Assembly (NCBI GenBank): GCA_910587795.1
Contig: CAJUNH010000002.1
Coordinates: 67,346 to 131,345, forward strand
Reading direction: 5' to 3'
DNA from: an uncultured Christensenellaceae bacterium
GTDB lineage: Bacteria; Bacillota; Clostridia; Christensenellales; CAG-314
Length of the DNA stretch: 64,000 nucleotides
Below, piece by piece: positions 1,347-23,984 of the stretch (the stretch's first letter is position 1; every line of letters starts with the position of its first letter). The position numbers were made by a program, and so were the translations under genes. A model generated the notes under the pieces. It saw only the letters and a list, made by a program, of their open reading frames with translations. It was not told the DNA's origin and searched no databases.

Positions 1347-1516
1347 TTTGCCCTCCAAAATAAAATTACATAATAATGCATATTATCTCGGCAACATTAT
1401 ACCACATTATTTTGCTGTTTAAAATATTATTTTTTTAAGAAATTTTATATTAAAATACTAGATAAATTCGAGCAAGACGAAGCTGCAAAATTTAAGTTTT
1501 GACCCCTTTTTAAAAA

Positions 1517-1552
1517 GCCACTTATTTTGCCACTAAATTTGCCACTTATTTT
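1517..1552. repeat. Three tandem 12-nt units: GCCACTTATTTT / GCCACTAAATTT / GCCACTTATTTT
   Basis: Read directly. It lies in the spacer between tRNA-Pro and the nucleotidase gene, about 170-205 nt upstream of ATG 1346. Confidence 0.9.
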
Positions 1553-1606
1553 GACCGAAAAACATTGAAAACGAAAAATTTGTGGTTAGAAAATCCTAAA
1601 TTACAG

Positions 1607-1636
1607 CAAAAAAGCACCGTTTTTACGGTGCTTTTG
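1607..1636 (-). terminator. Rho-independent terminator after tRNA-Pro (bidirectional shape)
   Basis: 8-bp stem AGCACCGT/ACGGTGCT with a TTTT loop, flanked by an A-run and a T-run. On the minus strand it is followed by TTTTTT. Confidence 0.7.
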
Positions 1637-1643
1637 GTTAATA

Positions 1644-1720
1644 TGGTCTGAGTGACTGGACTTGAACCAGCGACCCCAAGACCCCCAGTCTTGTGCGCTA
1701 CCAAACTGCGCTACACCCAG
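1644..1720 (-). tRNA. tRNA-Pro (anticodon GGG), CCA encoded
   Basis: The reverse complement folds as a cloverleaf. Acceptor stem CTGGGTG/CACTCAG, D arm GCGC-AGTTTGGTA-GCGC, anticodon stem CAAGA/TCTTG with loop CTGGGGG, T arm GCTGG-TTCAAGT-CCAGT, then A-CCA. Confidence 0.85.
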
Positions 1721-1802: not shown

Positions 1803-1838
1803 TATAAAAGCAAGCTTTCCAAACGGAAAACCTGCTTT
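1803..1838 (-). terminator. Rho-independent terminator after the 177-aa lipoprotein gene
   Basis: Minus-strand hairpin GCAGGTTTTCC-GTTT-GGAAAGCTTGC (11 bp including G-U pairs) followed by TTTTATATT. Confidence 0.6.
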
Positions 1839-1879
1839 TAAATCATTTAAAATATTTCAGTTAGAAAATTTTGCGTTAA

Positions 1880-2413
1880 TTAAAACGTATAAGCCGTTGT
1901 AACCGTAACGTTGTTTCCGTTTGCCGTTGCATAGCTTACAGTAAGGCTTGCAAAACTGCCGTCCGTATTTAACGCAAACACCACCGTTACGTTTCCGCTT
2001 AACGTACCGTCTGCGCCAAGCAATGTCTTTGCATTTTCGGCAGACATCGCGCCTGTTAAAGTCCTTGCCTGTTCGTTTTCGGTAAGTTCCGTAAAGCTGT
2101 CCGCCTTTAAAACGACCGTCAGCTTAGCTTTGTCAAAGTCCTTAGTTGTCGTTACGGGAGCTGCGGAGTCCACCGTTACGGTAGTTTCGGCGGCTTTTCC
2201 GCTTGCCATATCGTAAACAATATCCGTTTTGCAAAGTTCTTCGGTTCCGCTTTTTACAACAAGCGTTTGCTTAATTTGCTTTGATTGCGTAACTTTACCG
2301 TACGCGTCAAATACTTTTGCGGTAAAACTGTCGTCCTTACACGCCGATAAAACCAATACCGTAGCCAAGCAAACTACAATCGCCAAAAATATCGCTGATT
2401 TTTTAAATTTCAT
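1880..2413 (-). CDS. Small lipoprotein (177 aa), function unknown; paralog of the 200-aa lipoprotein at 23985..24587
   Basis: Signal peptide with lipobox LSAC. AGGAGG sits 8 nt upstream. Its ATG overlaps the TAA of the upstream 1384-aa gene (TAATG). Confidence 0.8.
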   Translation of the reverse strand: MKFKKSAIFLAIVVCLATVLVLSACKDDSFTAKVFDAYGKVTQSKQIKQTLVVKSGTEELCKTDIVYDMASGKAAETTVTVDSAAPVTTTKDFDKAKLTVVLKADSFTELTENEQARTLTGAMSAENAKTLLGADGTLSGNVTVVFALNTDGSFASLTVSYATANGNNVTVTTAYTF

Positions 2414-5400
2414 TAAAACATCCTCCTTTTAGCAATCCAAGCGGCAAATGCAAGCATAGCCGCTGTCGCAGTAACGGAAAACACCACACTGTTTGCCACT
2501 TTGCGCGCGCCTTCCAAGTCCGCCTTTGCACCGTTAACTTTTGCTTCTACTTCCGCAATCTTTACATTAAATGCCGTCAGGTCGAGCTGCTCCTTTTGTT
2601 CTGCGGTCAATTTCTCTATCGCGGCTTGTGCCTTTGCAATTTTGTCGATAGCGTCCTTAACACCGCTTGCGTTTATCGCCGCCGTTACCGCCGCTTTCGC
2701 CTGCGTAACTTCTTTGTCCTCATCAGGGGTAGGCGTTAAACTTCCGGCAAGACGGTCTATTTCCGCTTTGCCTGCCGTTAACGCTTCCGCCACGGCTTGT
2801 TTAGTGGCAGCCTTGTCGATTGCCTCCGCCAGACTTGCCGGAGCGGAAACTTTCTTTTCCGCCGCGTATGCACTAAGCTCGGCTTTTGCGTCTGCCTTGG
2901 CTTTATTTAGCGCTATCTCGGCAAGCGCAGCCGCTTTTATTTCGTTAACTTCATCAATCGTAGCCGCCTCGTCAATTTGCGCGTTTACGTCGGGTGCTTC
3001 TACTCCGTTTTCGGTTGCCGCAGCCTCTATTGCCGCTTTTGCATCCGCCTTTGCAGCCGCAAGAACCCTTATATCCACAAGCGATTTGAGCAACGCTTTT
3101 TGTTCGTCGGCGGCAGTTTTATCTTTTGCGTCTCTTAAAGCAAAAGTTTCGCTAGCCGTCAGCGTGATATTAAATCTCTGCGCGTACGCGTTAACTTCAT
3201 CAAGAACAGCCGCTTTGTAGTCGATAATTTCTATAACGTCGGCATAAATTTTACGAATTTTTGCTTCGGTGTCCGTAGCAGGCTTATCCATATCGTTTAA
3301 AGGCACTTCCACGCCCTTTTCGCGTGCGTATGCCGTCATTGCCGCGGTAAGTTCTTCTTTAAGCGCAACACGGTTTTCGTGGTTGAGTTCCCAAACGGCA
3401 ACCAACGTATTAGTGCCTCCGGGCATTGTTCCGTAATACGTTTCGGTTGTGTCCGCCTTCGTCCAACGGTATTCTTCGCCGTTTAAAGTCCAACATACAA
3501 AATCGTATCCTTCCTTTACGGGGTTTGCGGGTTTATCGAATCTTTCCGCGCTGTTTAAAGTAATGTCCGTCAAATAAGCTGCTCCGTCGGCGGTAGTACC
3601 GCCGTTTAAATCGAATTTAAGCGTACTGGGCAATGCCTTCCAAATACCGACAAGAGAAATGTTTTTACCCGGCATCGTAGTCCAATCGAACACTTTACCT
3701 TCTAAGTTCCAACTAATAAATTCATAGCCTGCGCGTACAGGGTCTGCAGGTTTTAATCCGCTGATGTCCGCACCGAATTTTGCCTGAATAGACTCTATCG
3801 GTTTATCGCCCGGCTGTTCAAACTTAATCGTGTACAGTTTGTCCGTAATCGTTACGCGCAACGTAACAAATTTATCCTCGCCCGTTTGCTCGTCCTTACC
3901 CGCAGGATAAGTTATTTTGTCCGTTGCGGAAATTTCGCGCATATCCGCAGTGTTTACCCATTTTGCAGTACGGTGTTCGCTTACGGCAAACAATTCCTTT
4001 TGTGCGTCGGTTAGCTCCGTTAAAACCTCGTCTAACGTAAACTGCGTTTTGTCGCGCATTAATACTTCTGTATCGATTATTTCGGTTTTACCGTCGTTTA
4101 CAACCTCTATTACAACTTTTTTGTAATCGTAACGCCATACGGCATACAAAGTGCATTCGTGGTCGACCGTTACTCCGTACTTAGCTTCGTACTCCACGAC
4201 AGCGCCGCCTTCCGCGGACGTCCAACCCATAAACGTATAACGTTCACGTCTGGTTTTTTCGCCGTCGTACGGAACCGCAACGGGGTTACGCTCCGTTCCG
4301 CTGCGTGTATCGTCATCAACTCCCGTACCGTACACAAACGTAACGGTGTAGGATTGAACAACCACTGCGTAATAATGAGTGTCCTCGCTTATAATTTTCC
4401 AGCCGTTGCTGACAAACGTACCTGTCAGTTCGGGATTTGTCGCCCATCCTTCAAATCTATCACCGTATTCCTTCCAGTCGGAGAAATACGTATCAACGCT
4501 TTGCAAATTGAAATTCGTCGAAGTTGTGCTTTTTTCGATTTCTACCGTTTCCGTTTTAGTTCCAAGGTGGAAAATAACGTTGACATACTCTATCTTTTCG
4601 AATTGTGCAACAAGAGTTCCCTCTTCGTTGTCTAGTTTTTCTAAGGTAGAGCGATAAATAATGCCGCCTTTCTTTAAATACGTCGTACCGTTATCCAACA
4701 GCCAGCCCAGGAACTTGTAGCCTTCTTTAACAGGATCGTTAACGTCTATCGAATAGGAAGTACTTGTCCTTGCTATTTCCGCAGTGTGCACCGTTTCTCC
4801 CTCTACGACAAAGTGTAACGAATATCCGTCAAATTTCCACTGAGCCGTAATTACGGTGTCTGCCGTAATATCGATAGTAGAGCCGCAAGAAACAATCGTT
4901 TCATCTTGCCCGACGGTAAATCCCTTCAAAACGTAACCTTGCTTTGCTGCGCTGCTTTGACTAGGCAATCTGTATTTTTGTCCTACGCCGCCTTTAATAT
5001 CGTTTTTATACGTATCGCTGTTAAATTCGCCGCCGTTAGCATCAAAGCGAATAGTAACGGACTGCGTCAATTCCGCCGTTAATACAAGGTTATCCTTAAT
5101 GTTTGTAGAATTACCTGCGACGTATAAAGTATCGCCGCTTTTCCATCCAAGAAAATACTCGTCTTCGCCGACTTGATAATCGGTAAAAATTTCGCTTACA
5201 TCGGGTGCTTTCCAATAATTAAGTCCGCTGCTGTTTTTCGTATAAGATTTTACAACGTCTTCTTTGCCGTCCATTCGATAAGTAACGTCAATACAGTTGT
5301 AATCCCACACCGCTTTTAACGTAATGTTTTCCGTTAGGTTAATAGCTGCACCGACAGGAAGAATTTCGCCTTCGCCGTTTACCTGCCAGCCCGCAAACTT

Positions 5401-6567
5401 ATAGTTAGCAAGAGTAAACGCACATACGGGCAAATAATAGTCGCCGTAATCTCGCGTAACGTTTTCCATTACGCCCGCCGCTTCGGTATGTACCTTATCA
5501 AAAGAAACCGTTGCCGTTTCGCCTTGTACGTACTCTGTTAACGCATAAAATTCAAATTGATATTTTGTAGTATCCGTCGGCAGACTTGCCGCCAACTGAA
5601 AGTTAGAACTGCTGAAATAAATATACTTGTTTCCTTTTAAATAAAATCTATAGGGAACGTTTTCTAATGTTGTAAATTGCAAGGACGCAGACGAACTGCT
5701 GCTTTCGGCAGAAATGAAATTTCCGTTTGCGCCAAGATACTTGCCTTTGGCTTTATCGCCTACAAAGCAAAAGTTAATTTGGTTTGCTGAAGTACGCGTA
5801 GCCGTCCACACAACAAGGGCTTCATTGGTATTTTTAACCTCTAGGTCCAAATATTTGCCGTCGCTAAAAATATCGTATGCCGCGCCGAAACCGCCGGAAC
5901 TTGTAGCACCCAGCGCAGTAAGCTTTGTTCCGGTGTTTCCAACCAAAATACCGGTTACCGATTCACCAACGGTAAGCTCCGTCAACGAAGTCTTTGTGTA
6001 GCGCATTTCGGCTCCGCCTGTCGCCGCTTGCCGTACAAAAATTAAAAACTTCGTAGAATCCCAATCATCCATAGCATATCCGGAATTACTTCCAACAACC
6101 GCTCTGCCGTTAGTTGCATATAAATAGTTAGTGCTGCCGTCCAACGTACTTGCCGAATTACTTAAAGATACGCTGTTGTATGCATAAAGCTTATTATAGC
6201 TTGCGGAAGCAAGCGATTCGATCTCAACGTCGGTATCGCCGGCACTTACGATTTTCCACAGCAATTTATTGTCAACGTTGGTTTTTGACGCGTCGATTTT
6301 AGTATCGTTATCCTGCAAATAAACTTCCGTAACAGTAACAGAACTGCCCGACGCCGTCATAGCATAATAGCCAGTGCCTGATTTATGCACTATCATCGCT
6401 ACGTCGGCAGCAGGAATATTTTTTTCCGCGGACAACACGTAATCGTACATTTCCGCGGCTTGCGCAGGGGGGGGCGTTGCAGCGGACAGCGCAACGGCAA
6501 GCAGCAACGCGGAAAAACAAACTACTGCCAATGTTACTTTTAGCAATAGGTTTATTTTCTTTGCCAT
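2413..6567 (-). CDS. Large surface protein (1384 aa): signal peptide, beta-rich N-terminal region, about nine Listeria-Bacteroides (Flg_new-type) repeats, Ala/Lys/Glu-rich helical repeats, C-terminal TM tail anchor
   Basis: AGGAGG 7 nt upstream of the ATG. Signal peptide ending AQA. Recurrent G(Y/F)xFxGW...(L/V)xAxW repeat endings. C-terminus LTAEQKEQL...VVFSVTATAAMLAFAAWIAKRRMF. No LPXTG. Confidence 0.85.
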   Translation of the reverse strand: MAKKINLLLKVTLAVVCFSALLLAVALSAATPPPAQAAEMYDYVLSAEKNIPAADVAMIVHKSGTGYYAMTASGSSVTVTEVYLQDNDTKIDASKTNVDNKLLWKIVSAGDTDVEIESLASASYNKLYAYNSVSLSNSASTLDGSTNYLYATNGRAVVGSNSGYAMDDWDSTKFLIFVRQAATGGAEMRYTKTSLTELTVGESVTGILVGNTGTKLTALGATSSGGFGAAYDIFSDGKYLDLEVKNTNEALVVWTATRTSANQINFCFVGDKAKGKYLGANGNFISAESSSSSASLQFTTLENVPYRFYLKGNKYIYFSSSNFQLAASLPTDTTKYQFEFYALTEYVQGETATVSFDKVHTEAAGVMENVTRDYGDYYLPVCAFTLANYKFAGWQVNGEGEILPVGAAINLTENITLKAVWDYNCIDVTYRMDGKEDVVKSYTKNSSGLNYWKAPDVSEIFTDYQVGEDEYFLGWKSGDTLYVAGNSTNIKDNLVLTAELTQSVTIRFDANGGEFNSDTYKNDIKGGVGQKYRLPSQSSAAKQGYVLKGFTVGQDETIVSCGSTIDITADTVITAQWKFDGYSLHFVVEGETVHTAEIARTSTSYSIDVNDPVKEGYKFLGWLLDNGTTYLKKGGIIYRSTLEKLDNEEGTLVAQFEKIEYVNVIFHLGTKTETVEIEKSTTSTNFNLQSVDTYFSDWKEYGDRFEGWATNPELTGTFVSNGWKIISEDTHYYAVVVQSYTVTFVYGTGVDDDTRSGTERNPVAVPYDGEKTRRERYTFMGWTSAEGGAVVEYEAKYGVTVDHECTLYAVWRYDYKKVVIEVVNDGKTEIIDTEVLMRDKTQFTLDEVLTELTDAQKELFAVSEHRTAKWVNTADMREISATDKITYPAGKDEQTGEDKFVTLRVTITDKLYTIKFEQPGDKPIESIQAKFGADISGLKPADPVRAGYEFISWNLEGKVFDWTTMPGKNISLVGIWKALPSTLKFDLNGGTTADGAAYLTDITLNSAERFDKPANPVKEGYDFVCWTLNGEEYRWTKADTTETYYGTMPGGTNTLVAVWELNHENRVALKEELTAAMTAYAREKGVEVPLNDMDKPATDTEAKIRKIYADVIEIIDYKAAVLDEVNAYAQRFNITLTASETFALRDAKDKTAADEQKALLKSLVDIRVLAAAKADAKAAIEAAATENGVEAPDVNAQIDEAATIDEVNEIKAAALAEIALNKAKADAKAELSAYAAEKKVSAPASLAEAIDKAATKQAVAEALTAGKAEIDRLAGSLTPTPDEDKEVTQAKAAVTAAINASGVKDAIDKIAKAQAAIEKLTAEQKEQLDLTAFNVKIAEVEAKVNGAKADLEGARKVANSVVFSVTATAAMLAFAAWIAKRRMF

Positions 6568-6779
6568 AATAATTCCTCCTTAAATAAATCTTCTTCCTCA
6601 TGTTTAACGCAATAAATGCGGTAAATTAAATAATAAAAAATACGCCTTGCAAAACAGCCGATATATTTAGCCATTTCAACAAAGCGATACTATTTTTAGT
6701 ATATTACTAATGTTGAGTATTAAAAAATACTCGCTCATTTTAATATTTTTTTATTACGTTATAGGCTAAATCTATACTA

Positions 6780-6809
6780 ATTTTACTACACAGACGGAAA
6801 GATTGTCAA
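6780..6809 (-). promoter_or_regulatory. Candidate promoter for the 1384-aa gene
   Basis: Minus strand TTGACA (6809..6804), 18 nt, TAAAAT (6785..6780). Motif match only, and it would give a leader of about 200 nt. Confidence 0.3.
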
Positions 6810-7275
6810 ATATTATTTAAAAAAAGTAAAGTTTTTTTAAAATAAATTGCCGATATATCGCACAATTATGTTTTTTTGTACTATTTGCGCAGAATAAGCG
6901 ATCTAAAAACAACGAAATAAAATTTGCGGCATCACTATTAGGACTTGAATACAAACGGAAGTCAAATTATTTTTTACAGCTTGACGGCTTACTTTTTATT
7001 ACAGGACGTTTCGTCTGCGCTTTAAGTTCAGCATTATAGTAACGCCATCGGCTGACGGCATTTAAAGCGTTACATTCGGCAAAATACGTAAGTTTTAAAA
7101 ACAAATAAGTTAACTTCCGCAATAATTAAAAGATAACCTGCGTTTTTTTTTATAACTATTTGCAGTTATCTGTTTTTTGAAAATAATATACTTAATATTA
7201 AAATTTTAAAAAAGCTTACCTTATTGCAAACGAAATACCCGACAGACAGATTTAGAAATAAACTTACGCTTTTGC

Positions 7276-7310
7276 AAAAAAACCCGTGCGGGATGCACAG
7301 GTTTTTTTTA
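7276..7310 (-). terminator. Rho-independent terminator ending the long S8/Opp/lipoprotein transcription unit
   Basis: Stem CCTGTGC/GCACGGG (one mismatch), 5-nt loop, flanked by A7 and T8. On the minus strand it is followed by TTTTTTTGC, 13 nt after the stop of the 1484-aa gene. Confidence 0.75.
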
Positions 7311-7322
7311 TTGCTGTTAAAA

Positions 7323-10300
7323 CTAATCTTCTACAAAGGTTACTTGACGGGACAAGTCTTTTCCAAAGTCTTCCAAACGATACCTAAACGCATACGTATT
7401 GCCGTCTTCGTCGTAGGCAATCATCATCAATGCGTTTTCCACTGCGTAAGCGTCGTTGATGATACCTGTAGAACTATCCTTATTGTGCGCCACTTGTACG
7501 CGTAACGAAGCAAACGTCAGTTTTTTGCCCGTAATTAATCCGTAGAAATTTGTATTGTTGAGGATTGTTTGAACCTGAGGATTATTTATATCGGTGTACT
7601 CGTAAATCAATCCGCGGTAATCGCCTATATCTCCGCCTACTTCTGCAAACTTAGTAAAGTCCAACTTAGACAATAAGCTAAACGGCAAGTCCATTGTAAA
7701 TGCCTTTTTGCTAACGCCTGCGGGCGTTGTGGTAACAAGAGTGCCCGAAAGCTTTCCTAGCTGTACTTTAAACGTAAACACGTATTTTTCCAAGATGTCC
7801 GTATCGTTAGAGGACATACCGTCGGGTTTGTACAGCGCAAAACGGAATTTGCCCGTGTTGGTATTCTTATCGTACTTAAAGTTAAGGCTTGCAAGCGCGC
7901 TTGCCAAATCCTTATTTTGATTGCGCGTGTTTTCGTAAAGCGTTTCGGGAGTGACCTCGTTGCCGTTAATGACGTAGCACAGATCCACCGACTGCGTGTT
8001 AAAGCTCATACCAAAGGATTGTTCAAAAGTTATTTGGTTAAGCAAACGCTTTACGTAGCTTTCGCCGACGTACGGAGTGTACGTAACTTCCGCGGCGCGG
8101 CTGTCCAACATTGTGCTGCCGCCCTTTGCGTAAACGCGTACAAGATACGTGCGTCCGACAGGGAAATCGCTTGCGGCAAAAGTAAGCGTTTGAGATGAGA
8201 TGTCGTAAACCTTTGTTGCTACGTCTGCCGGTTTGGTATTAGTAACCGCATACACTTCCACACGGTAATTGCTGCTGTCTCCCGTAATGGTCAGCGTGCT
8301 TGCCGCAAGGTCTATTGTAACTTGCGGAGTTGCCACGCGGGAAAGCTTGCACAATTCGATATCCAGTTTTGCCGACTCGGGGGCGTTAATCCAGTTAACG
8401 TTGTCGCCCACGGCAACAAGAGATATTGTGTAATTGTACAGCTGATCGTCGAGAACAAGCGTTGCGTCGAGCTCTTTAAGATTGGTTCCGCTTGTTACGT
8501 TGGGATACGACTTAATAAGTTCGCAGTCCAGTCCGTTTTTGCGGTAAACGTTAAGAATGTAGCCGGATGCGTTTGCAATATCGTCAAAGACCAAAACGCC
8601 GTTGTCGTCCACGCTGAAATAATAGTTGTTGCTTAGTTGATGTTTAAGCGTAGAGGGACGCTCTGCGTCCGGATTTTTAATTACGGAAGGCAACGTGAAG
8701 GAAACCGTATCGTAATTAAATCGGGAATATCCGCTAAACGGCTTGTAGTGTTCGCCGCCGGAACCTCTTACGTGAATATTTCCGGAATAGTAAATTTCGT
8801 ACAGCTTACCCGATGAAAGTTCCACCGAAACAAATTCCAGTTCCACCGTCCAACGGTAAGAGTTGTTAAACCCTAAGCTGCTGCCCGCCTGACGTTCCAA
8901 ATAATTTTCCGATCCGGAATAACGCGCTATTACCGCAGAAAGCTGTTCCATATAATCCGCTTTGCCGTAGTATTTGCCGTCCTTTCCTTCGTAGAACCAG
9001 TTTGCGCTGAGCATTTGGTTAATGGGCAGAATCCAACTTATCCATTCGTTGTATTTTTCCACGTCGTCGTCGACAAACGCGCTGTCTAACGGATATACCG
9101 TGTACGTACCGTTACTGCCCTTGTATGCAACGTACGGATTACCGCCTACAAAATATATATAATGGTCGCCCGTAATCCAGGTTACGTTATTTGTATGTTT
9201 GTAAACGTCGGCATGTTCGCCGAACACTCCGCCTAACTCGTCGTAGTCGTCGTAAACAAATTTGTCGGTGTAAGTAAAGTTACTGCCCGTGGCTGTAAGC
9301 GCAGCGCTAAGTCTGTCCAAACTTCCGTCCGTCTTTGCTTCGCCGGGGGCGATAAACTGTTCCTGAGCTTTTTGCGGAATTGCAACTTCGTTAGGATTTT
9401 GATTAAGAATAACGACTTCCTTGACGTAGTATTCCAACCAACCGTCATAGTCCTCGATATAGCTTGCCGCAACAACCTTAACAACCTTGCCGCCGTTCAT
9501 ATAAATACGGATATAGGCGTACGTTTCGGTTTCTTCCGCTTCGGGATACACTAAGTCCAAATCGCCGAAAATCAACTGTCCCAAAGCCTTAGTTGCAGCA
9601 GCCGTACCGTTAAACTCAAAGTATCCGCCCGTTGCACTGAACTCAAACTTATCTACGTATTCCGCCATCAGTTTAAGCAACGGAGCAGGTTGCGTGCAGT
9701 TGTAAAGTATTGCTCCGCCCGCTTCGATACCTAACAAATACTGATTGTAGTTATAATTGTTTTTGTAACTGTACAGATTGCAATATACGTCGTAGCCGTA
9801 ATTGCTGTTGGGTACTGCCAAGAACAATGCGCCCGTTGCAGAATCGTACTGATAGTAGCAGGTTTTGTTATCTATTACAACACTGCCGAAATTATCGTGA
9901 TTGTGCATTGTGTGAATAATTGAGGACGTTTGACCGTAGAAATTACTTGCCATTGTGTAATAACCTGTAAATACGGTTAAATCCCTTAATGCCTGCGCAA
10001 GCTGCTCTTTGGTGTATGCCACGCCGTCGCTCACGACGTTGTTACGGTTGGGGTCGTTGGGGTCCAGTATAGGATATAACGACGCGGCGCCGGGGTCTTC
10101 TTTATCCAAAAGTTCTTTAAATTCCGTTTTAAGATTTTTTAATACCGTCACGTCGCCGATACCGCTGACGGAAATACTATGCTTGTAGTAATAGTACGTA
10201 ACAGCAACGCCCGTACCGCCGATAGAGGTTGTGTCCGTAACTACGGAATCCGCCTCGATACCGATTAATACGCCTTGTTCGTTAAAGATAAGCGCAAAAG

Positions 10301-11777
10301 ACGTGTACGTACAATCGAAATCGCCCGTATAGCCTGACGTATTACCCAAAACAAGCTGTCCGGCTTCGTCGGCATAATTTATTTCGTCATTGTTAATTGC
10401 GTTCCATTTGCCGTCGTAATAATAGAATTTGGACGGGTCCAAAGTTGCAATTTTGTTTGCGGTAATAATATAAAAGTAGTCCGCAAGTTTACTTTCGGCA
10501 ATCGTGTTAAACGAGTATCCGCCTGACGGCGTTTGTTGGAAAATAGTAAAACTGCCTTCGTCGTAGGAAAACGCATAAGTATTTAACAGCAGCAACTCTC
10601 CGGTAGAAGAATCGACATAAAAATTACCGTCCTCGTCCTGTGCGGGTCCGCGCATACCGATAGATTCGCCGTCGTATGCAAGACCGTTTTTCATTGCCCA
10701 AACAAGATGTTCCGCGTCGTTTTCGTCCAGTACGGTTACACGCGTATTGTACAAAGCATTAAAATTTACAAAGTTTACTTTTTCCATTAAAGCTTTAATC
10801 TGCGCTTTGCTGTCTTCCGTAATATTAAATTGCGGAGTCCATTTTGCGTATAAAGTAACGTTATTCGTAGGCTCGTACGGGAAAGTTACCGCTTTGCCTG
10901 TTAAAGCTTCGTTGGCGAACCAACCTTCAAACGTAGCGTTTTCCTTAGTAGTTACGGGAGACTCAGCTATTACGTCCTCCGCTTTTACCGTTATATCCGC
11001 TACCGGCGTACCGCCGTTGGTGTTAAACGTAACGGTAAATTCTTCCTGTTCCACCACCCTCCATTTAGCGTACAGAGTACAGTCGCTCTGCGGATAAAAC
11101 GGGAACGTTACGGGGGAACCCTCACATTGTTCAGTCAAATACCAACCCGCAAATTCGTAATCCGCACGAACGGTTACGGGAGAAGTTTCTATTACCGAAA
11201 CGGTTTGAGCGACAACCGTAGTACCGCCCATAACGTTAAACCTTACGGTGTACTTCTGCGCGGGCGTTTCTCCCAAGCTCCACTTTGCATACAGCGTTAC
11301 ATCTTTTGTTACAGCGTAGGGAAAGGCAATAGCTTTGCCGCTTAATTCTTCATTTTCAAACCATCCCTCAAACGTATAACCCTCGCGCTCGGTTTTGGGC
11401 TCGGCGGTAATTTCCGCCGTATTCTGTGCGGGAACACGGGTGCCGCCGTTTGTTTCAAATTCTACAATGTGTTTTTCCGCAGGATTAGGAGACGTGCCTA
11501 CGGGAGACCATTTTGCGTACAAAGTTATATCCGCCGTTACAACGTACGGGAAAGTAACCGGACTGCCAGCCAATGCCTTGTTGTCGAACCAGCCTTCAAA
11601 CATATAACCTTCGCGCTCGGTTTCGGGCGTTATGCTGATAAGTCCCGTCTTTTGCGCTTCCACAGCGGTACCGCCGTTTGTTTCAAACGTGACTGTATAA
11701 ACGGCATTGCACGCCGCAATAACAAGCGACAGACACATAACGACAGTCAAAACCGCAATTAGTAATTTTTTATTCAT
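7323..11777 (-). CDS. Large lipoprotein (1484 aa): four N-terminal Listeria-Bacteroides repeats followed by about 1150 aa of repeated modules of unknown fold
   Basis: AGGAGG RBS and lipobox IAAC. Four repeats of the form ...TNGGT...REGY(T/M)FEGWF...TLYAKW. Later modules end in motifs such as SRFNYDTVSFTLP. Confidence 0.85.
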   Translation of the reverse strand: MNKKLLIAVLTVVMCLSLVIAACNAVYTVTFETNGGTAVEAQKTGLISITPETEREGYMFEGWFDNKALAGSPVTFPYVVTADITLYAKWSPVGTSPNPAEKHIVEFETNGGTRVPAQNTAEITAEPKTEREGYTFEGWFENEELSGKAIAFPYAVTKDVTLYAKWSLGETPAQKYTVRFNVMGGTTVVAQTVSVIETSPVTVRADYEFAGWYLTEQCEGSPVTFPFYPQSDCTLYAKWRVVEQEEFTVTFNTNGGTPVADITVKAEDVIAESPVTTKENATFEGWFANEALTGKAVTFPYEPTNNVTLYAKWTPQFNITEDSKAQIKALMEKVNFVNFNALYNTRVTVLDENDAEHLVWAMKNGLAYDGESIGMRGPAQDEDGNFYVDSSTGELLLLNTYAFSYDEGSFTIFQQTPSGGYSFNTIAESKLADYFYIITANKIATLDPSKFYYYDGKWNAINNDEINYADEAGQLVLGNTSGYTGDFDCTYTSFALIFNEQGVLIGIEADSVVTDTTSIGGTGVAVTYYYYKHSISVSGIGDVTVLKNLKTEFKELLDKEDPGAASLYPILDPNDPNRNNVVSDGVAYTKEQLAQALRDLTVFTGYYTMASNFYGQTSSIIHTMHNHDNFGSVVIDNKTCYYQYDSATGALFLAVPNSNYGYDVYCNLYSYKNNYNYNQYLLGIEAGGAILYNCTQPAPLLKLMAEYVDKFEFSATGGYFEFNGTAAATKALGQLIFGDLDLVYPEAEETETYAYIRIYMNGGKVVKVVAASYIEDYDGWLEYYVKEVVILNQNPNEVAIPQKAQEQFIAPGEAKTDGSLDRLSAALTATGSNFTYTDKFVYDDYDELGGVFGEHADVYKHTNNVTWITGDHYIYFVGGNPYVAYKGSNGTYTVYPLDSAFVDDDVEKYNEWISWILPINQMLSANWFYEGKDGKYYGKADYMEQLSAVIARYSGSENYLERQAGSSLGFNNSYRWTVELEFVSVELSSGKLYEIYYSGNIHVRGSGGEHYKPFSGYSRFNYDTVSFTLPSVIKNPDAERPSTLKHQLSNNYYFSVDDNGVLVFDDIANASGYILNVYRKNGLDCELIKSYPNVTSGTNLKELDATLVLDDQLYNYTISLVAVGDNVNWINAPESAKLDIELCKLSRVATPQVTIDLAASTLTITGDSSNYRVEVYAVTNTKPADVATKVYDISSQTLTFAASDFPVGRTYLVRVYAKGGSTMLDSRAAEVTYTPYVGESYVKRLLNQITFEQSFGMSFNTQSVDLCYVINGNEVTPETLYENTRNQNKDLASALASLNFKYDKNTNTGKFRFALYKPDGMSSNDTDILEKYVFTFKVQLGKLSGTLVTTTPAGVSKKAFTMDLPFSLLSKLDFTKFAEVGGDIGDYRGLIYEYTDINNPQVQTILNNTNFYGLITGKKLTFASLRVQVAHNKDSSTGIINDAYAVENALMMIAYDEDGNTYAFRYRLEDFGKDLSRQVTFVED
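10832..11705 (-). repeat. Four tandem intragenic Flg_new-type repeat units (about 70-90 codons each)
   Basis: Protein repeats are VYTVTFETNGG..LYAKWSP, HIVEFETNGG..LYAKWSL, KYTVRFNVMGG..LYAKWRV and EFTVTFNTNGG..LYAKWTP. DNA-level similarity is visible around the LYAKW-coding ends. Confidence 0.8.
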
Positions 11778-11785
11778 AATTCCTC

Positions 11786-14692
11786 CTAAGCAACCGCTTC
11801 GTCCGCAGTAAGCACGGTTGTACCGTAATCGCTAAACGTTGCGCTGACAGACATTTCGTCTGCATACAAAGTTACCTTTGTTACTTTTCCGTCCTCTACC
11901 GTAACGGAAACTCCTTTAAAACCGCCGAACTCTATTTGTGTGGATTCCTTATACAAATCTGCAAAATTATAGTAGTATTGTGCAAATTCCAAAATCTGTT
12001 CGTTGGTCAGTTTCCAACTATAACTGCCGTTTAAAGTATTGTATTTTGCGCTAGACACGTCCAGTTTTGTAAAATCGAACGTAAGCACAAGCTGTTCAAA
12101 CGCCTGAGTCAAATTTTCCGTTTCCTGTCCTAATTTTTTAAACCAAGCGCCGTCTTTAAATATATAGTCGGTTTGCACGTATTGATATTGGTTTTCCAAA
12201 TGTTCCAATGCCGCAGCTCCGTCGCCGTCAAACTTAAAGATAGATTCGCTTACCGATTCCGTAATAGTAACGTTAGCAAAGTTTTCCGATTTAAGCGCGT
12301 TGTTAAGTTCCGTAGTTTGGTCTGCGGTTAAGTTTTCCAACTGTTCGTCCACTGGCAGCGTTACCGCAGCGGTATCGAAATCCTTATACGTCAGCGTGCA
12401 TTGCTTGTAAACCTCTTTGTCTTTTGCTGTTGTTCCGTGTAAAACAAAGTATATTTCGGTAACGTTATTGTCTGCGTCCAAAGTTACTACACAGGTTTGC
12501 AGAGTTACGTTTAAAAAGTCGCTGCCTTCCAAAGACATTATTTGATTGATAAGCGCGTAAGCTTCGGCAAGTTTATCCGCTTTGACAATGTATTTATCGC
12601 CGAGTTTGCCGAACAAGTCCGCCTTTAATGCGATTGAAGCAACGGATATATAATTACCGTTTTGCCAACTTATATAATCAACGTCCGTAGCTGTGCCGTA
12701 GATATAGTCCGTACCGACCATTTGATACGTTGCCAGCGAGCCTTGAAGCTGCTTTATGTAATACTCCGCCGACTCGTAAATCCATTCTTCTTCTACAGTT
12801 TCGCCGGTAACAGGATCTTTACCGCTTAAAATTGCCCACTCCTTATAGTTGTGATATCCCTTTTGAGAGGTACTGTCGAACACGCCGAAGTAAGTATTTA
12901 TAAAGTAAGCCGCACCGCTGTCGATGTTGTAACCGTAGCTTATTTTGTCATAAGTTTTTGCCAACGCCGACGTTAAATTCGCCGTTTCGTCCGCCGTTAA
13001 GTCGGTTGCCTGCGAAGGATCGGGAAAATCGGGTTTTTCCGCCGGAGCAACGTATTTTTCCGCTTCGGGGATTTCCACCGCGGTATTATTAAAGTCCTCC
13101 CAATTATAGGTTACGATAACTCTAAAATCGCCTTGATCGTCCGTATCCGTATATGTAATTTTTAGCTCGGTGATGTTTGTTCCGTCGGTTTTAATTATAA
13201 CGCTTTCGGGAGAAGCGGTTTGTAAATCCAAAAATTCTCCAGCGACGGTGTTAAGATAGCGATTGCTGGCTTTGTAGGTGTTTTCGCCTGCTTTTTCAAA
13301 CATACCGTAAGTTAAAGCGCTTGATACGTCCGCCATTGTAAACATATATGGAGCTATATCGTCCTTTATGGCTTGATCGAAATCCGTAATTTGATAGTAC
13401 CATTTGCTGTTTTCAGTGTTTTGGTACACTATACGTATGGTCTGTGCAGCCGCGTCTACATCCAGATAGTAATTTTCGTCTACGTCCGGTTCGCTTAGCG
13501 ACGGAATATGATACGCGTGACGTACAAAGTAACTTGAACCCTGAACGGACTCCTCTTGCAATATCCAAGCTCCGTCTTCGGGGACTTCGTACTTATATGT
13601 AAATTTAAGCGAAGCGTATTGCTTTTTAAACATTGCTTCCAGCGCTTTGCCTTCCGTCTCGTTAAGATTAGGTGAATTTACGTATGTTACGGTTGCCTCG
13701 CATGTATAATCGCGCGATTGATATTTAAAAGTAAGCTTATATTTACATTCGCCCTCGGCAGAAGGGTTTCCGCTTATAAGCTCCGCCGTAATTTGCGGAT
13801 TAGACACCGTACTGCCGTTTACAATGGGGATTGCTTTTGCCGCCCAGTCGATATCCTGACCGATATAAGCCGTAAACGGGTCGCAGCCGAACAAAACCTT
13901 TGATTCCTCTACATATTGAACTTTTACGGACTGTGTATATTCCGTACCTTCGTACTTAAAGGTAAGTACGTACTCCGCCACGCCCGATACGGATTCGCTG
14001 CCGACATCCAGTTTCGCAGTAATCTGCGGGTTAGATACGGGAACGCCGTTTACCGTAACCGTCACGTTAGCCGCCCAGTCGGGAGTTGTTCCCAACTGCA
14101 CCGTTAAAACGGGACAGGATATTACTACTGCGGGATTGCTTGCAGAGGAAGTGTAAGTTACGGCGATATTGCCAGAAGTATACGTTTGTCCGTCTATTTG
14201 TACGCTCAGTCTGTACGTACATTGTCCCGCAACGGCAGGGTCTCCGCCGACAAGTTTAGAGGTAAATTGCAAACCCGACGTTACCGTTCCGTCCACCGTT
14301 ACCGTTACAAAGTTAGACCAATCTATATTTTGACCGACGTTAACTTGTATCGTCGCCGCGTCAAACCGTACATCGTGGGTTGCAATGAAAAATTCCACCG
14401 AAGCGGTTGTAGTATAAGATTGGTTATTGTAGACGTAAGTTAATATATACGTCGCTTTGCCCGCTTTAGAAGGATCGCCGCTTTTAAGGTCGGCGGAAAT
14501 TTCGGGGTTATCCGCTTTGACGTCGTCCACCGTTACCGTTACGTAATCTTTCCAGTTTACGTCAGCGCCGACAGGCAATTTTATTTCGTCGCAAGTTATC
14601 TTTACTTTGTGTATTTCTTCCGTACACGCCGCAAAACACAATGCCGCGCACAGCAACATAACCAACAATACGATTATCAGTTTTTTCTTCAT
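11786..14692 (-). CDS. Large lipoprotein (968 aa): four Ig-like repeats followed by three modules of about 200 aa of unknown fold
   Basis: GGAGAGG RBS and lipobox FAAC. The three distal modules end TYNWEDFNNTAVEIP, TYKDFDTAAVTLP and TFSDYGTTVLT. Confidence 0.85.
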   Translation of the reverse strand: MKKKLIIVLLVMLLCAALCFAACTEEIHKVKITCDEIKLPVGADVNWKDYVTVTVDDVKADNPEISADLKSGDPSKAGKATYILTYVYNNQSYTTTASVEFFIATHDVRFDAATIQVNVGQNIDWSNFVTVTVDGTVTSGLQFTSKLVGGDPAVAGQCTYRLSVQIDGQTYTSGNIAVTYTSSASNPAVVISCPVLTVQLGTTPDWAANVTVTVNGVPVSNPQITAKLDVGSESVSGVAEYVLTFKYEGTEYTQSVKVQYVEESKVLFGCDPFTAYIGQDIDWAAKAIPIVNGSTVSNPQITAELISGNPSAEGECKYKLTFKYQSRDYTCEATVTYVNSPNLNETEGKALEAMFKKQYASLKFTYKYEVPEDGAWILQEESVQGSSYFVRHAYHIPSLSEPDVDENYYLDVDAAAQTIRIVYQNTENSKWYYQITDFDQAIKDDIAPYMFTMADVSSALTYGMFEKAGENTYKASNRYLNTVAGEFLDLQTASPESVIIKTDGTNITELKITYTDTDDQGDFRVIVTYNWEDFNNTAVEIPEAEKYVAPAEKPDFPDPSQATDLTADETANLTSALAKTYDKISYGYNIDSGAAYFINTYFGVFDSTSQKGYHNYKEWAILSGKDPVTGETVEEEWIYESAEYYIKQLQGSLATYQMVGTDYIYGTATDVDYISWQNGNYISVASIALKADLFGKLGDKYIVKADKLAEAYALINQIMSLEGSDFLNVTLQTCVVTLDADNNVTEIYFVLHGTTAKDKEVYKQCTLTYKDFDTAAVTLPVDEQLENLTADQTTELNNALKSENFANVTITESVSESIFKFDGDGAAALEHLENQYQYVQTDYIFKDGAWFKKLGQETENLTQAFEQLVLTFDFTKLDVSSAKYNTLNGSYSWKLTNEQILEFAQYYYNFADLYKESTQIEFGGFKGVSVTVEDGKVTKVTLYADEMSVSATFSDYGTTVLTADEAVA
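13672..14611 (-). repeat. Four tandem Ig-like repeat units (about 78-85 codons each) in the 968-aa lipoprotein
   Basis: Each unit has the pattern ..G..(I/V)(D/N)W...V(T/P)(V/I)(T/V)V(D/N)G..V..P(Q/E)I(T/S)A.L..G.....G...Y.L(T/S)..Y....Y. Confidence 0.7.
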
Positions 14693-14702
14693 AACCTCTC
14701 CT

Positions 14703-14963
14703 TTACCTCATCAGCAAATACAATATTACGGCGGCTATACCGAAAGCAACAACGAATATCAATAAAATAGGCAGATAAACTCTGTACGCCGCGCCTATCA
14801 TAGCGCGTTTTTCTTTGCGCGTTAGTTTTACGCGTTTTTTGCGTTCCTCGGCGCGCTGTTCGGCTTGTTCGGGAGTTAACCCTTCCAAACCCGCCATAGA
14901 GTATATCGTTTCGCCGTCGTCTTCGCGGTACACTGCTTTAATTTTTTTGTTTTTCTTTTTCAT
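14703..14963 (-). CDS. Small membrane protein (86 aa): basic N-terminus, single C-terminal TM helix
   Basis: The ORF overlaps the oppF 3' end by 26 nt. TM segment YLPILLIFVVAFGIAAVILYLLM. The RBS is weak (GGTAG), so coding status is less certain. Confidence 0.5.
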   Translation of the reverse strand: MKKKNKKIKAVYREDDGETIYSMAGLEGLTPEQAEQRAEERKKRVKLTRKEKRAMIGAAYRVYLPILLIFVVAFGIAAVILYLLMR

Positions 14964-15975
14964 TATCTACCGTATCAAACTTGTGGCAAGCCACGTAGTG
15001 ACCTGCGCTTACCTCGAAATACTGCGGAGGCTGTTTTTTGCATTGTTCGGTACAATATTTACAGCGTGTGTGAAATTTGCAGCCCTCGGGCGGATTTGCA
15101 GGACTGGGAAGTTCGCCCTCCAACGCTTCGGGATTGGACTTTTTATGCGGATTTGCAATGGGAACGGCGGAAAACAAGGCTTGCGTATACGGGTGAGACG
15201 CATGATTGCAAATATCGTCCGTTGTCCCGATTTCCACGATATTACCCAAATACATTACCGCTATTGTGTCCGAAATATATTTTACTACGGACAAGTCGTG
15301 CGAAATAAACATATAGGACATGTTTTCTTCGCGCTGTAACTTTTTAAGCAGATTTATCACCTGCGCCTGAATAGAAACGTCCAAAGCGGAAACAGGCTCG
15401 TCGCAGATAACCAACCTGGGCTTAACCGCAAGAGCGCGCGCAATACAAATACGCTGACGCTGACCGCCGCTGAACTCGTGCGGGTAACGGTCAAAATAAT
15501 GTTCCTGCAATCCGCAGCGTTTCATAACGCCTATTACGTATTCTCTCACTTCTCCTTTGGGTACGATATTGTGAGTTCTAACGCCTTCGCTGATTATTTC
15601 GCCCACAGTCATACGGGGAGGCAGCGACGAATACGGATCCTGAAAAACATATTGCAAATGCGTGCGCAGCGGCTGTAAGTCTTTGCGTTTGATAGTTGCC
15701 AGTTCGTGCTCGAAACCGTCCTGTTCGACGTAAACAGCCGAACCTTCGGTAATATCGTACAAGCGCAATATAGTACGCCCCAAAGTAGTTTTACCGCAAC
15801 CGGACTCGCCTACGATACCTATCGTTTTGCCGCGTTCCAAATTAAACGTAACGCCGTCAACTGCGCGCAAATATCCGGCGGGCTTGCCGAACATACTTTT
15901 ACCGACGGGAAAGTATTGCTTTAAGTTGGAAACTTTTAATATGTAATCCTTGTTTTGATTGTTTCGTTCGCTCAT
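14938..15975 (-). CDS. oppF: Oligopeptide/dipeptide ABC transporter ATP-binding protein (OppF-type)
   Basis: Walker A GESGCGKT, signature FSGGQRQR, Walker B LVICDEPVSALD, H-loop ISHDL, and a Cys-rich C-terminal oligopeptide-type domain (CKFHTRCKYCTEQC). Confidence 0.9.
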   Translation of the reverse strand: MSERNNQNKDYILKVSNLKQYFPVGKSMFGKPAGYLRAVDGVTFNLERGKTIGIVGESGCGKTTLGRTILRLYDITEGSAVYVEQDGFEHELATIKRKDLQPLRTHLQYVFQDPYSSLPPRMTVGEIISEGVRTHNIVPKGEVREYVIGVMKRCGLQEHYFDRYPHEFSGGQRQRICIARALAVKPRLVICDEPVSALDVSIQAQVINLLKKLQREENMSYMFISHDLSVVKYISDTIAVMYLGNIVEIGTTDDICNHASHPYTQALFSAVPIANPHKKSNPEALEGELPSPANPPEGCKFHTRCKYCTEQCKKQPPQYFEVSAGHYVACHKFDTVDNEKEKQKN

Positions 15976-15992
15976 TGTTTTCTCGTAATATA

Positions 15993-17312
15993 TTATTTTT
16001 TATACAAATGACAAAATACGCTGTGAGTATCGGTCACTTTTATTTCCTGAGGATATTCCCCTTCGCATTTACCGCAGCGGCGGTTGCATCTATCCTTAAA
16101 CAAACACTCGTTAGGCATATTTATAGGGTTAGGCACGTTGCCGGGTATACTGTACAAATCCGCGCCGATATCCGATTCGAACGTGGGCTTTGCCTTTTGT
16201 ATACCCATTGTGTACGGATGCAACGGGTTATCGAAAATTTCGTAAACCGTACCCTTTTCCACAATTTTTCCCGCATACATAACCACAACGTAATCCGCCA
16301 TTTCGGCGACAACGCCCAAATCGTGGGTAATAAGCAGCACCGACGCGTTACATTGTTTCTGCACGTTTTTTATAAGCTGCAATATCTGGCTTTGAATGGT
16401 AACGTCCAACGCCGTAGTCGGTTCGTCGGCAATAATCAGTTTGGGGTTGCCCGTTAAGGCTATCGCTATCATTACTCTCTGGCGCATACCTCCCGACAGC
16501 TGATGAGGATAATAGTCTATTATCGTTTCCGGCATAGGAATACCCACAAGTTTAAGCATTTTAATTGCTTTTGCGCGGGCTTGCTCCTTAGTTGCCAAAG
16601 GATGCAGCAAGTACACCACTTCCTCTATTTGATAGCCGATTGTGAACACGGGGTTAAGACTGGTCATCGGCTCTTGGAATATCATAGAAATATCCTTACC
16701 GCGTACGCGCGCCATATCCTCCGTGGGCATTTTTGCAATGTCGTAGACCGTTTCCGCCGTCTCGTAAACAAACATACCGTCGTCGTTTACCTCGCGTATC
16801 GGCTCGGTTACGGGCTTGCCTTCTTTATTCAAAACGGGATTGCCGTGTTTGTCTAATTTAGGCTGTGTAATAATTTCGCCGTTTTCGTTCCGTTTGTACA
16901 CAGGTATACGTTTGCCGCGGTCGTCCGTTCGGTAATCGTTTGCCGCAAATCGGATTTCGCCGTCCACAACCTGACCTTGCGGAGCCTGCACGAGCTGCAT
17001 AATAGACAAACTCGTAACGCTTTTGCCGCAGCCCGATTCGCCTACTAAGCCCACTATGGAATTTTGCGGAATATCAAAACTTATGCCGTTGACGGACTTG
17101 ACTACGCCGTTATCCGTAAAGAAATAGGTGTGCAGATTTTCCACTTCCAACACGTTGTCGGGGTTTTTCATCTGCGCGGTAAAGTGTTCCGCCGATACGC
17201 GCTTGCGTTTGATTTTTTCCAAACGTTTCATTTCGCGCATATTGCTTTTTAATATGGCGCGGCTTTCCTTTATAGTTAAATTGTAAGGATTTTTTGCTTT
17301 TTCGTTTTTCAT
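15993..17312 (-). CDS. oppD: Oligopeptide ABC transporter ATP-binding protein (OppD-type) with an N-terminal extension and an internal insertion
   Basis: Walker [34 protein letters not shown]. About 118 aa separate Walker A from the MIFQEP Q-loop. Confidence 0.9.
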
Positions 17313-17318
17313 CGCGTT

Positions 17319-18707: not shown

Positions 18708-18717
18708 AATATCACCG

Positions 18718-20115: not shown

Positions 20116-20134
20116 TTAATTTTCCTATAAGTGT

Positions 20135-22738: not shown

Positions 22739-22743
22739 TATTG

Positions 22744-23874: not shown

Positions 23875-23984
23875 CGTTACCTCTAAAATCGTTACTTCTA
23901 AATTTGATTGTTACGTTAACAGCCTTTACGTTACCGAAAACGCTGTCCGCAGATAATTTGCCGACATTATTACCGGCTGCGACG

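Follow-up and report, generated by a model that had tools for sequence, protein, structure and literature searches.

The 64,000-nucleotide stretch of DNA analysed here (the window), part of a metagenome-assembled genome (MAG) of a mouse-gut Christensenellales-like Clostridia bacterium, encodes two giant surface proteins, g1 and g2, each followed by a gene for a small lipoprotein whose start codon overlaps the giant's stop codon. An earlier note on this stretch had singled out the two gene pairs and suggested that the lipoprotein may be a dedicated partner for assembly, maturation or anchoring of the giant. We find that the observation is real and goes beyond chance. Giant and lipoprotein are supported as a conserved, translationally coupled unit, and the lipoprotein family, previously unannotated, has a predicted LolA-like fold. 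The best-supported reading is that the lipoprotein is probably a dedicated partner of the giant's membrane anchor, with a putative role in assembly or anchoring to which the gene linkage points.

The two pairs, and the expression signals described with them, lie on the minus strand. The first giant, g1 (2413..6567; 1384 aa), has a signal peptide, Listeria-Bacteroides repeats (Flg_new 6e-31, Flg_new_2 4e-12), an Ala/Lys/Glu-rich helical stalk and a C-terminal anchor module; it has no catalytic or toxin domain, its C-terminus consisting of stalk and transmembrane helix, and it is followed by a 177-aa lipoprotein (1880..2413). The second, g2 (24584..32437; 2617 aa), runs from a signal peptide through Peptidase_S8 (PF00082, 1.4e-43), PA (PF02225, 3.5e-17), fn3_5 (PF06280, 3.7e-15), Big_2 and BspA-type LRR_5 domains to a helical stalk and an anchor module, and is followed by a 200-aa probable lipoprotein (23985..24587). 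These coordinates agree exactly with those first reported for the four open reading frames (ORFs). With an S8 domain, an inserted PA domain and then fn3_5, g2 has the arrangement of cell-envelope proteases of the lactocepin/C5a-peptidase type; it scores 273 bits against NF040553, far under that model's full-length cut-off of 1400. The giants had been called tail-anchored, which is a misnomer: g1 (MAKKINLLLKVTLAVVCFSALLLAVALSAATPPPAQA/AE, ending AQA/AE) and g2 (beginning MTKKKIRFSIVVWILAVVMALSVVCAAF) carry N-terminal signal peptides with a basic n-region and a hydrophobic stretch, and are therefore type I single-pass proteins rather than tail-anchored in the strict sense. They are the only large proteins of the window with both an N-terminal signal peptide and a C-terminal transmembrane helix.

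The two stop/start overlaps are present as originally described. At the first junction (AAAAGGAGGATGTTTTAATG), within TAATG (2411..2415), the TAA of g1 (2415..2413) shares one base with the ATG of the 177-aa gene (2413..2411); at the second (TTAGGAGGCAAACTATGA), within ATGA (24584..24587), the ATG of the 200-aa gene (24587..24585) overlaps the TGA of g2 (24586..24584). Both lipoprotein starts have an AGGAGG 7-8 nt upstream, embedded in the giant's final codons. The Shine-Dalgarno sequence of the 177-aa gene (AAAAGGAGG, 2422..2430) also codes for K-R-R in the cytoplasmic tail of g1, and that of the 200-aa gene (AGGAGG, 24594..24599) is read in the g2 frame as L-G-G (TTA GGA GGC). Only these two of the nine same-strand junctions in the gene island overlap. 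AGG makes up 7.3% of the Arg codons in the window, yet g1-type tails use AAA-AGG-AGG, so the codon choice reflects a role as ribosome-binding site. The same identity of K-R-R tail, AAA-AGG-AGG and Shine-Dalgarno sequence is seen at the equivalent sites of nine other loci (L001, L008, L009, L011, L015, L096-L098 and L100).

The pairing is conserved well beyond the window. An exhaustive HMMER (phmmer) search with the mature 177-aa protein against 1.84 billion representatives outlines a very small family of lipoproteins (172-186 aa in this search, E 1e-22 to 7e-5, 29-41% identity; 172-191 aa over all members) in about 13 lineages, all of them Christensenellales-like gut Clostridia. The contexts read were those of all 13 sequence-distinct lineages with any upstream DNA: the window with P0001, P0002 (L001, L003), P0003 (L098), P0006 (L008), P0008 (L009), P0010 (L010), P0011 (L102), P0013 (L011), P0014 (L012), P0015 (L015), P0016 (L100) and two metagenome loci (L096, L097). 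In 13/13, at 28-99% identity, the lipoprotein gene comes directly after a gene whose product, large or only partial, carries the anchor module, and in 13/13 its start lies -4 to +5 nt from the upstream stop; the complete upstream partners are Flg_new proteins of 1123-1609 aa. The 200-aa family has one other lineage, L007, where a protein of 71% identity sits in the same arrangement behind a 2615-aa S8/LRR giant, so that this pair too is present in both known lineages of its family. The question whether the lipoprotein always follows an anchored giant, which the earlier note had put forward as a check, can thus be answered with 13 of 13 lineages for the 177-aa family and two of two for the 200-aa family, and the outcome that it had named as fatal, homologues mostly without an adjacent giant, did not materialise: among the 13 lineages with upstream DNA we found no 177-aa family member lacking one. 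Both small genes are under purifying selection, with ratios of nonsynonymous to synonymous substitution rates (dN/dS) of about 0.25 for the 177-aa gene and 0.21 for the 200-aa gene, similar to that of g1 itself.

Two further observations concern the giants of related loci. The g1 orthologue is broken into two or three ORFs in two MAG contigs (L004 2129..5997; L005 5813..10001), which could be due to frameshifts, pseudogenisation or assembly errors. At L044, a 930-aa protein (16622..19414) ends in a transmembrane helix and basic tail (..SQKKRS), and a 492-aa lipoprotein starts 1 nt later; this may be an analogous but unrelated pairing of giant and lipoprotein.

Word-indexed homologue searches gave only 3, 2 and 6 clusters, and a pattern search of genome contigs built from alignment A1 returned 90 pattern matches, of which 0 were confirmed. 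Four entries of the exhaustive search (P0007, P0009, P0012 and P0017) are long proteins with many short matching stretches and were set aside, uninspected, as low-complexity. AsnRS, the aminoacyl-tRNA synthetase gene adjoining the locus, served as a synteny anchor; the window's copy shares 94% identity with its counterpart in MGBC159553 and 86% with the one in the cultured Anaerocaecibacter muris, and identities among the closest relatives are 77-94%. A g2-type pair stands beside AsnRS in no other species, and the 200-aa pair is for this reason confirmed in L007 as its only other lineage. Two of the MAGs, L009 (GCA_023663205.1) and L036, are recorded as 'Corallococcus sp.'; their AsnRS is 84% identical to that of the window, and their genes, AsnRS included, group with Christensenellales-like Clostridia, so these labels are probably wrong.

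What the giants have in common is their C-terminal anchor module. In g1 it covers approximately residues 1295-1384 (2416..2685) and consists of a hairpin (LTAEQKEQL..FN), a juxtamembrane segment (ADLEGARKVANSVV), an Ala/Ser/Thr-rich transmembrane helix and the tail K-R-R-M-F; in g2 it covers approximately residues 2528-2617 (24587..24856), with the hairpin LTAEEKAYV..YN, a transmembrane helix and the tail ..KNLLGGKL. The g1-type module is found in all 13 lineages, with a hairpin of the form L-(T/S/N)-x-(E/D)-E-K...Y-N, a D-L-x-x-A-(E)-like juxtamembrane motif, a transmembrane helix rich in Ala, Gly, Ser and Thr, and a basic tail, mostly K-R-R-x-F. A shared C-terminal layout of g1 and g2 had been proposed from the LTAE(E/Q)K helix and single membrane anchor, and it is borne out at profile level: a comparison of a profile of nine g1-type modules with that of g2 aligns a 43-column LTxEEK hairpin (Prob 90%, P=1.7e-6), with a score of 36.8 against shuffle nulls of 9-11 (maximum 22). 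Less sensitive methods do not see this relationship. With a plain hidden Markov model (HMM) built on the g1-type module, g2 does not come up at E<=1, and composition-corrected BLASTP between the giants is not significant; we discount the uncorrected BLASTP E-value of 2e-6 because Ala/Lys/Glu-rich helices inflate it. The small-residue character of the g1-type transmembrane helices (2431..2490 in the window and its orthologues, for example SVTATAAMLAFAAWIA and GAVAAAMAAVALVALL) is an observation in its own right. Such patterns often mediate helix-helix packing, and oligomerisation or a transmembrane partner is possible for these helices.

A natural variant of the locus separates the anchor module from the domains that it usually carries. 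In a common variant among strains, a 26.1-kb in-frame deletion, corresponding to 3597..29721 of the window, joins amino acids 1-907 of g2 to amino acids 991-1384 of g1. The result is a 1294-aa protein encoded right after the tRNA synthetase gene, its g2 part 98% and its g1 part 95% identical to the window. We found this fusion in about 10 of the 20 contigs read (L002, L006 and eight similar places), or about half of the contigs carrying the 85%-identical lipoprotein P0002. The junction (at about 8818..8829 of L002 and L006) has only approximately 12 bp of imperfect microhomology, which argues for a real deletion over an assembly chimera, and the same junction recurs in several samples; we therefore reject a chimeric origin of the L002 fusion. 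Lost with the deletion are the leucine-rich-repeat (LRR) half of g2, the 200-aa lipoprotein, the entire Opp operon and two giant lipoproteins; what is left encodes a complete signal peptide and the protease, joined to the g1 anchor module, with the g1-type lipoprotein behind it. Thus, the lipoprotein tracks the anchor and not the passenger domain, and the S8 domain, which persists in the fusion without the 200-aa protein, does not depend on that protein. The fusion also suggests that the cassette could be recombined onto different passengers.

The small proteins themselves have the features of lipoproteins, as judged by reading their signal peptides against the lipobox pattern [LVI][ASTVI][GAS]C. 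The 177-aa protein has the lipobox LSAC with the lipidated position at Cys25, a cysteine invariant in 11/11 aligned family members; the 200-aa protein has LCGC with Cys21, where the Cys at -2 is unusual, yet is kept in its homologues. Neither protein has a match in Pfam, NCBIfam or PDB-sequence families, and the only source name found was 'hypothetical protein'. LolA, LolB, LppX_LprAFG, MucB_RseB, DUF4367 and related Pfam families were matched at E<=1 neither by the two proteins nor by any of the 11 family members, so that by sequence neither belongs to the curated families of the LolA-like/PLLLF clan, and a profile search of PDB sequences gave nothing below E=0.43. The 11-sequence alignment of the mature 177-aa family contains no conserved set of Cys, His, Ser or Asp residues, and the lipoprotein is therefore probably not an enzyme.

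Independent AlphaFold (AF2) models of the 177-aa protein (pLDDT 77, pTM 0.72) and the 200-aa protein (pLDDT 70, pTM 0.68) have the same order of elements, namely a helix, three strands, short helices, two strands, a helix and three strands, with one additional beta-hairpin in the 200-aa model. Foldseek searches of the PDB match the 177-aa model best to LprG (3mh8, E 4.6e-5, TM-score 0.43) and also to LolA, and the 200-aa model to 4eg9 (TM-score 0.40), LolA, LolB and RseB; three entries (4mxt, 8t5t and 7tpm) are matched by both. Across these matches (Foldseek probability 0.96-1.00, E 5e-5 to 5e-3, TM-scores 0.31-0.43), both models resemble the LolA-like/PLLLF fold with moderate confidence. The small proteins are accordingly predicted to be lipoproteins with a LolA/LprG-like (PLLLF) unclosed half-barrel.

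Whether the two small proteins are related to each other proved harder to establish. The earlier note had aligned their C-terminal halves by eye. Pairwise comparison does not bear this out (BLASTP E=1.7, not significant); hhalign with shallow profiles (4 versus 3 sequences) aligned the signal peptides only, and the 200-aa family was missing from the exhaustive phmmer results for the 177-aa protein. The register that had been drawn emerges once the profile is deeper: with 11 sequences, hhalign places residues 101-171 of the shorter protein opposite 131-194 of the longer (Prob 78%, P=1.8e-5), at a score of 25.4 against 11.9 +/- 2.3 for 200 column shuffles (maximum 22.9; 0/200 reach the observed score) and 10-12 for reversed sequences. 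This register sets strand against strand and helix against helix of both AlphaFold models. In addition, the best non-self match of the 200-aa family HMM (A2) among 2,540 ORFs is a lipoprotein of the 177-aa family (A3), at E=0.036, a weak best match that is reciprocal. Similarity therefore exceeds chance, and the lack of significant similarity that had been named as grounds for abandoning the idea is not what we observe at profile level. We consider the 177-aa and 200-aa proteins probable remote homologues with a predicted LolA-like fold. The term 'paralogous', under which they were introduced, is plausible: remote profile similarity, element order and fold superfamily all favour it, and the sequence evidence taken by itself is marginal, leaving the term weakly supported.

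We propose that each pair is a two-part cassette, composed of the C-terminal anchor module, with its L-T/S-x-E-E/Q-K hairpin, of a Sec-exported type I giant and a small LolA/LprG-like lipoprotein that serves as its dedicated partner, a role suggested by gene linkage to which we give about an even chance. Ribosomes that finish the giant would re-initiate on the lipoprotein gene, and they would do so while the nascent giant tethers the mRNA to the membrane, so that the lipoprotein would be made in fixed proportion beside the anchor. Once lipid-anchored on the outer face of the membrane, the lipoprotein may bind the membrane-proximal hairpin or the juxtamembrane segment of its own giant, and as a partner without enzymatic activity it would stabilise, orient or retain the anchor. 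The cassette of module and lipoprotein was probably duplicated and then took on different passengers, giving rise to the 177-aa and 200-aa copies. In a bolder version, which we hold to be rather unlikely as it stands, module and lipoprotein would form a portable, sortase-independent anchoring device in which the hydrophobic groove of the lipoprotein clamps the juxtamembrane or transmembrane helix, giving a two-point anchor of membrane helix and lipid.

There are precedents for this kind of partnership. RseB, which has the LolA fold, binds RseA, a single-pass membrane protein, at its extracytoplasmic portion, a mode of action resembling the one we propose for lipoprotein and giant. Our models share matches to LolA, and the 200-aa model also matches LolB and RseB; unlike those proteins, the small lipoproteins have no Lol machinery in their context, come from a Clostridia host, align at TM-scores of only 0.31-0.40 and belong to none of the corresponding sequence families. 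Nearest in function is GerS of C. difficile, a LolA-like lipoprotein that binds the amidase CwlD in a 1:1 complex; the monoderm members of its superfamily perform specialised tasks (bioRxiv 10.1101/2025.01.13.632879). Both there and, as proposed, here, a small Clostridia lipoprotein with a LolA-like fold and without LolA sequence similarity is the stoichiometric partner of one extracytoplasmic protein. The likeness has its bounds: no sequence relation was detected, the GerS-CwlD entry 7RAG does not appear in the listed top 50 fold matches of either model, and the putative partner is not an amidase but the region through which a giant adhesin or protease is anchored, with binding postulated from gene order and with no link to sporulation.

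Several points weigh against this proposal. Short gene overlaps are common in the genome (for example at 39311 and at 54671..54674). Homologue contexts were sampled lipoprotein-first, a procedure that module-bearing giants without a lipoprotein would escape, and all contexts come from one narrow clade, so that part of the conservation reflects vertical inheritance and the adjacency may owe something to descent rather than selection. Loci L020 and L074 of related genomes encode large C-terminally anchored proteins that lack the module and have no coupled small lipoprotein; a partner is therefore not a general requirement for C-terminal anchoring. The structural models were built on very shallow alignments (4 and 3 sequences), and the TM-scores of 0.31-0.43 are modest, being partly lowered by the disordered signal peptide. 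Finally, homology of the small proteins hangs on the 78% profile probability and the fold-level match, and plain HMM comparisons between the two families give the E=0.036 cited above in one direction and 1.3-2.5 in the other.

The most serious alternative, though one that we do not expect to prevail, is that the lipoprotein is a LolA/LprG-type carrier of hydrophobic ligands with its own job at the cell surface, co-transcribed with the giant only for co-regulation. The best fold matches are indeed carriers of lipids or lipoproteins, namely LprG bound to phosphatidylinositol mannoside (PIM) or triacylglyceride and LolA, and membership of an operon, in a genome where short overlaps are common, is no proof of contact. 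Like the proteins described here, LprG and LppX of mycobacteria are lipid-anchored, measure about 200 aa and share small operons with a membrane protein partner, and LprG is the best structural match of the 177-aa model. The resemblance ends at sequence level, where there is no match to Pfam LppX_LprAFG and 13-14% identity in the structural alignment; moreover, LprG carries glycolipids across a diderm-like envelope, and neither such an envelope nor a lipid cargo is evident here. The genetics are also harder to reconcile with a carrier. In 13/13 lineages, module and lipoprotein occur strictly 1:1, and the ribosome-binding site of the lipoprotein gene lies within the tail codons of the giant; the lipoprotein remains with the module in the fusion variant, and the two giants each own a diverged lipoprotein instead of sharing one. 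In addition, the monoderm PLLLF proteins characterised so far are protein partners and not carriers.

It is improbable that the small proteins are unrelated and that the two pairs arose as independent coincidences in a lipoprotein-rich window. The failed BLASTP, shallow hhalign and phmmer comparisons leave room for this view, as does the presence of at least 7 lipoproteins in the window. It is opposed by the deeper profile alignment, which beats 200/200 shuffles, by the common element order and the three shared PDB entries, and by the recovery of an A3 member as the best non-self match of the A2 profile. The upstream modules are related as well, and the restriction of overlaps to just these two of the nine island junctions is not what coincidence would lead one to expect.

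Protein-sorting signals of the LPXTG and PEP-CTERM types generally consist of a motif, a hydrophobic helix and a basic tail, and the g1-type module, with its D-L-x-x-A-E-like motif, hydrophobic helix and terminal K-R-R conserved across lineages, has the same tripartite layout at the C-terminus of a large surface protein. The module might then be a cleavable signal of sortase or exosortase type, processed by an enzyme from another locus, and the lipoprotein an adaptor or acceptor in that route and no stabiliser of a lasting membrane anchor, which we judge to have quite a small chance of being correct. The tails contain no LPXTG or known CTERM motif: g1, g2 and all orthologues lack an LPXTG-like sequence over their 60 C-terminal residues, and the NCBIfam LPXTG-peptidase matches of g2 span its protease region only. 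LPXTG sortase anchoring is accordingly rejected, there being no such motif before the transmembrane helix. The K-R-R is at least partly explained by the embedded ribosome-binding site, a double use that sets these tails apart from sortase substrates, and the g2 tail ..KNLLGGKL is not strongly basic. The loci examined showed no candidate for a sorting enzyme. Such an enzyme usually serves many targets and is not paired 1:1, whereas each target here has its own small, non-enzymatic lipoprotein.

Least credible by far is a function tied to the passenger, with the lipoprotein a PrtM/PrsA-like foldase or an inhibitor or immunity protein, since the S8 domain is kept in the fusion with the g1-type lipoprotein and without the 200-aa protein, which argues against both roles and largely refutes the idea. 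The comparison with PrtM and PrtP, raised loosely in the earlier note, has a parallel in its favour: as for PrtP, an S8+PA+fn3_5 cell-envelope protease (g2) stands beside an Opp peptide-uptake operon and a lipoprotein gene, and an accessory lipoprotein of its own would follow the same logic. PrtM itself is a parvulin of the PrsA type, a peptidyl-prolyl isomerase (PPIase). Neither small protein matches rotamase, SurA_N or PrsA models in Pfam and NCBIfam, or any other Pfam domain; their predicted fold is a LolA-like all-beta half-barrel, so that the analogy lacks a structural basis, and the lipoprotein tracks the C-terminal anchor, in one of the two pairs behind a giant that is not a protease. 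We thus reject a PrtM-like role, on the absence of a PPIase domain and the persistence of the protease in the fusion. Giant toxin genes are often overlapped at their 3' end by a small gene for immunity. No toxin domain was found at the C-terminus of g1 or g2, as a polymorphic toxin would have, nor any catalytic domain in g1, and since the giants end in a helical stalk and membrane anchor, we reject a toxin-immunity reading too.

The surroundings of the two pairs provide further context. Upstream of g1 lies a promoter-like site (6780..6809; TTGACA-18-TAAAAT, 11/12, the best of the region, by consensus match only), and 40 nt past the stop of the 177-aa gene lies a strong terminator-like hairpin (1805..1840) with a 16-bp stem and T-rich tail; bracketed by these signals, the first pair looks like a self-contained two-gene unit. 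A promoter-like site, again by consensus match only, also precedes g2 (32564..32592; TTTACA-17-TAAAAT with a TG-extended -10), and no terminator was seen between the second pair and the next gene. Between the pairs are genes for a 376-aa Flg_new lipoprotein, an oversized Opp-type peptide ABC transporter, and lipoproteins of 968 and 1484 aa. The transporter (14938..22738) has unusually large parts (an 867-aa SBP_bac_5 lipoprotein, permeases of 462 and 465 aa and an ATPase of 439 aa), and its position between an S8 cell-envelope protease and giant lipoproteins suggests an island for proteolysis and peptide uptake. In the region 7323..14692, the 1484-aa lipoprotein has four Flg_new repeats and a sub-threshold Shr-like HID match, and the 968-aa lipoprotein has no Pfam domain. 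Both are lipid-anchored at the N-terminus and lack the C-terminal module, so that two anchoring strategies coexist at one locus. Downstream of the 177-aa-type lipoprotein, an sbcD-sbcC pair of 4.3 kb is present in L002, L003, L005 and L006 (L002 10788..15138, corresponding to 1382..1644 of the window) and absent in the window and L001, where a 5'-nucleotidase/metallophosphatase gene comes directly next; this is a second strain-level indel beside the deletion that created the fusion.

How very large adhesins and proteases are held on monoderm gut anaerobes without LPXTG and sortase is poorly described. The pairs analysed here reveal an unannotated lipoprotein family of predicted LolA-like fold with a tight genetic tie to one particular C-terminal anchor module, and a natural domain-swap variant gives a hint of the part of the giant that is served by the lipoprotein. 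They also offer a clean example of a ribosome-binding site and a basic membrane-anchor tail coded by the same bases. The practical value is modest: this is a very small family, limited to a narrow, mostly uncultured clade. After GerS-CwlD, these pairs are a candidate second example of LolA-fold lipoproteins in Clostridia that act as dedicated protein partners rather than lipid carriers. If module and lipoprotein do form an anchoring device, they would represent a new class of dedicated anchoring partner for the giant surface proteins of gut Clostridia, and would show the LolA fold in a new function.

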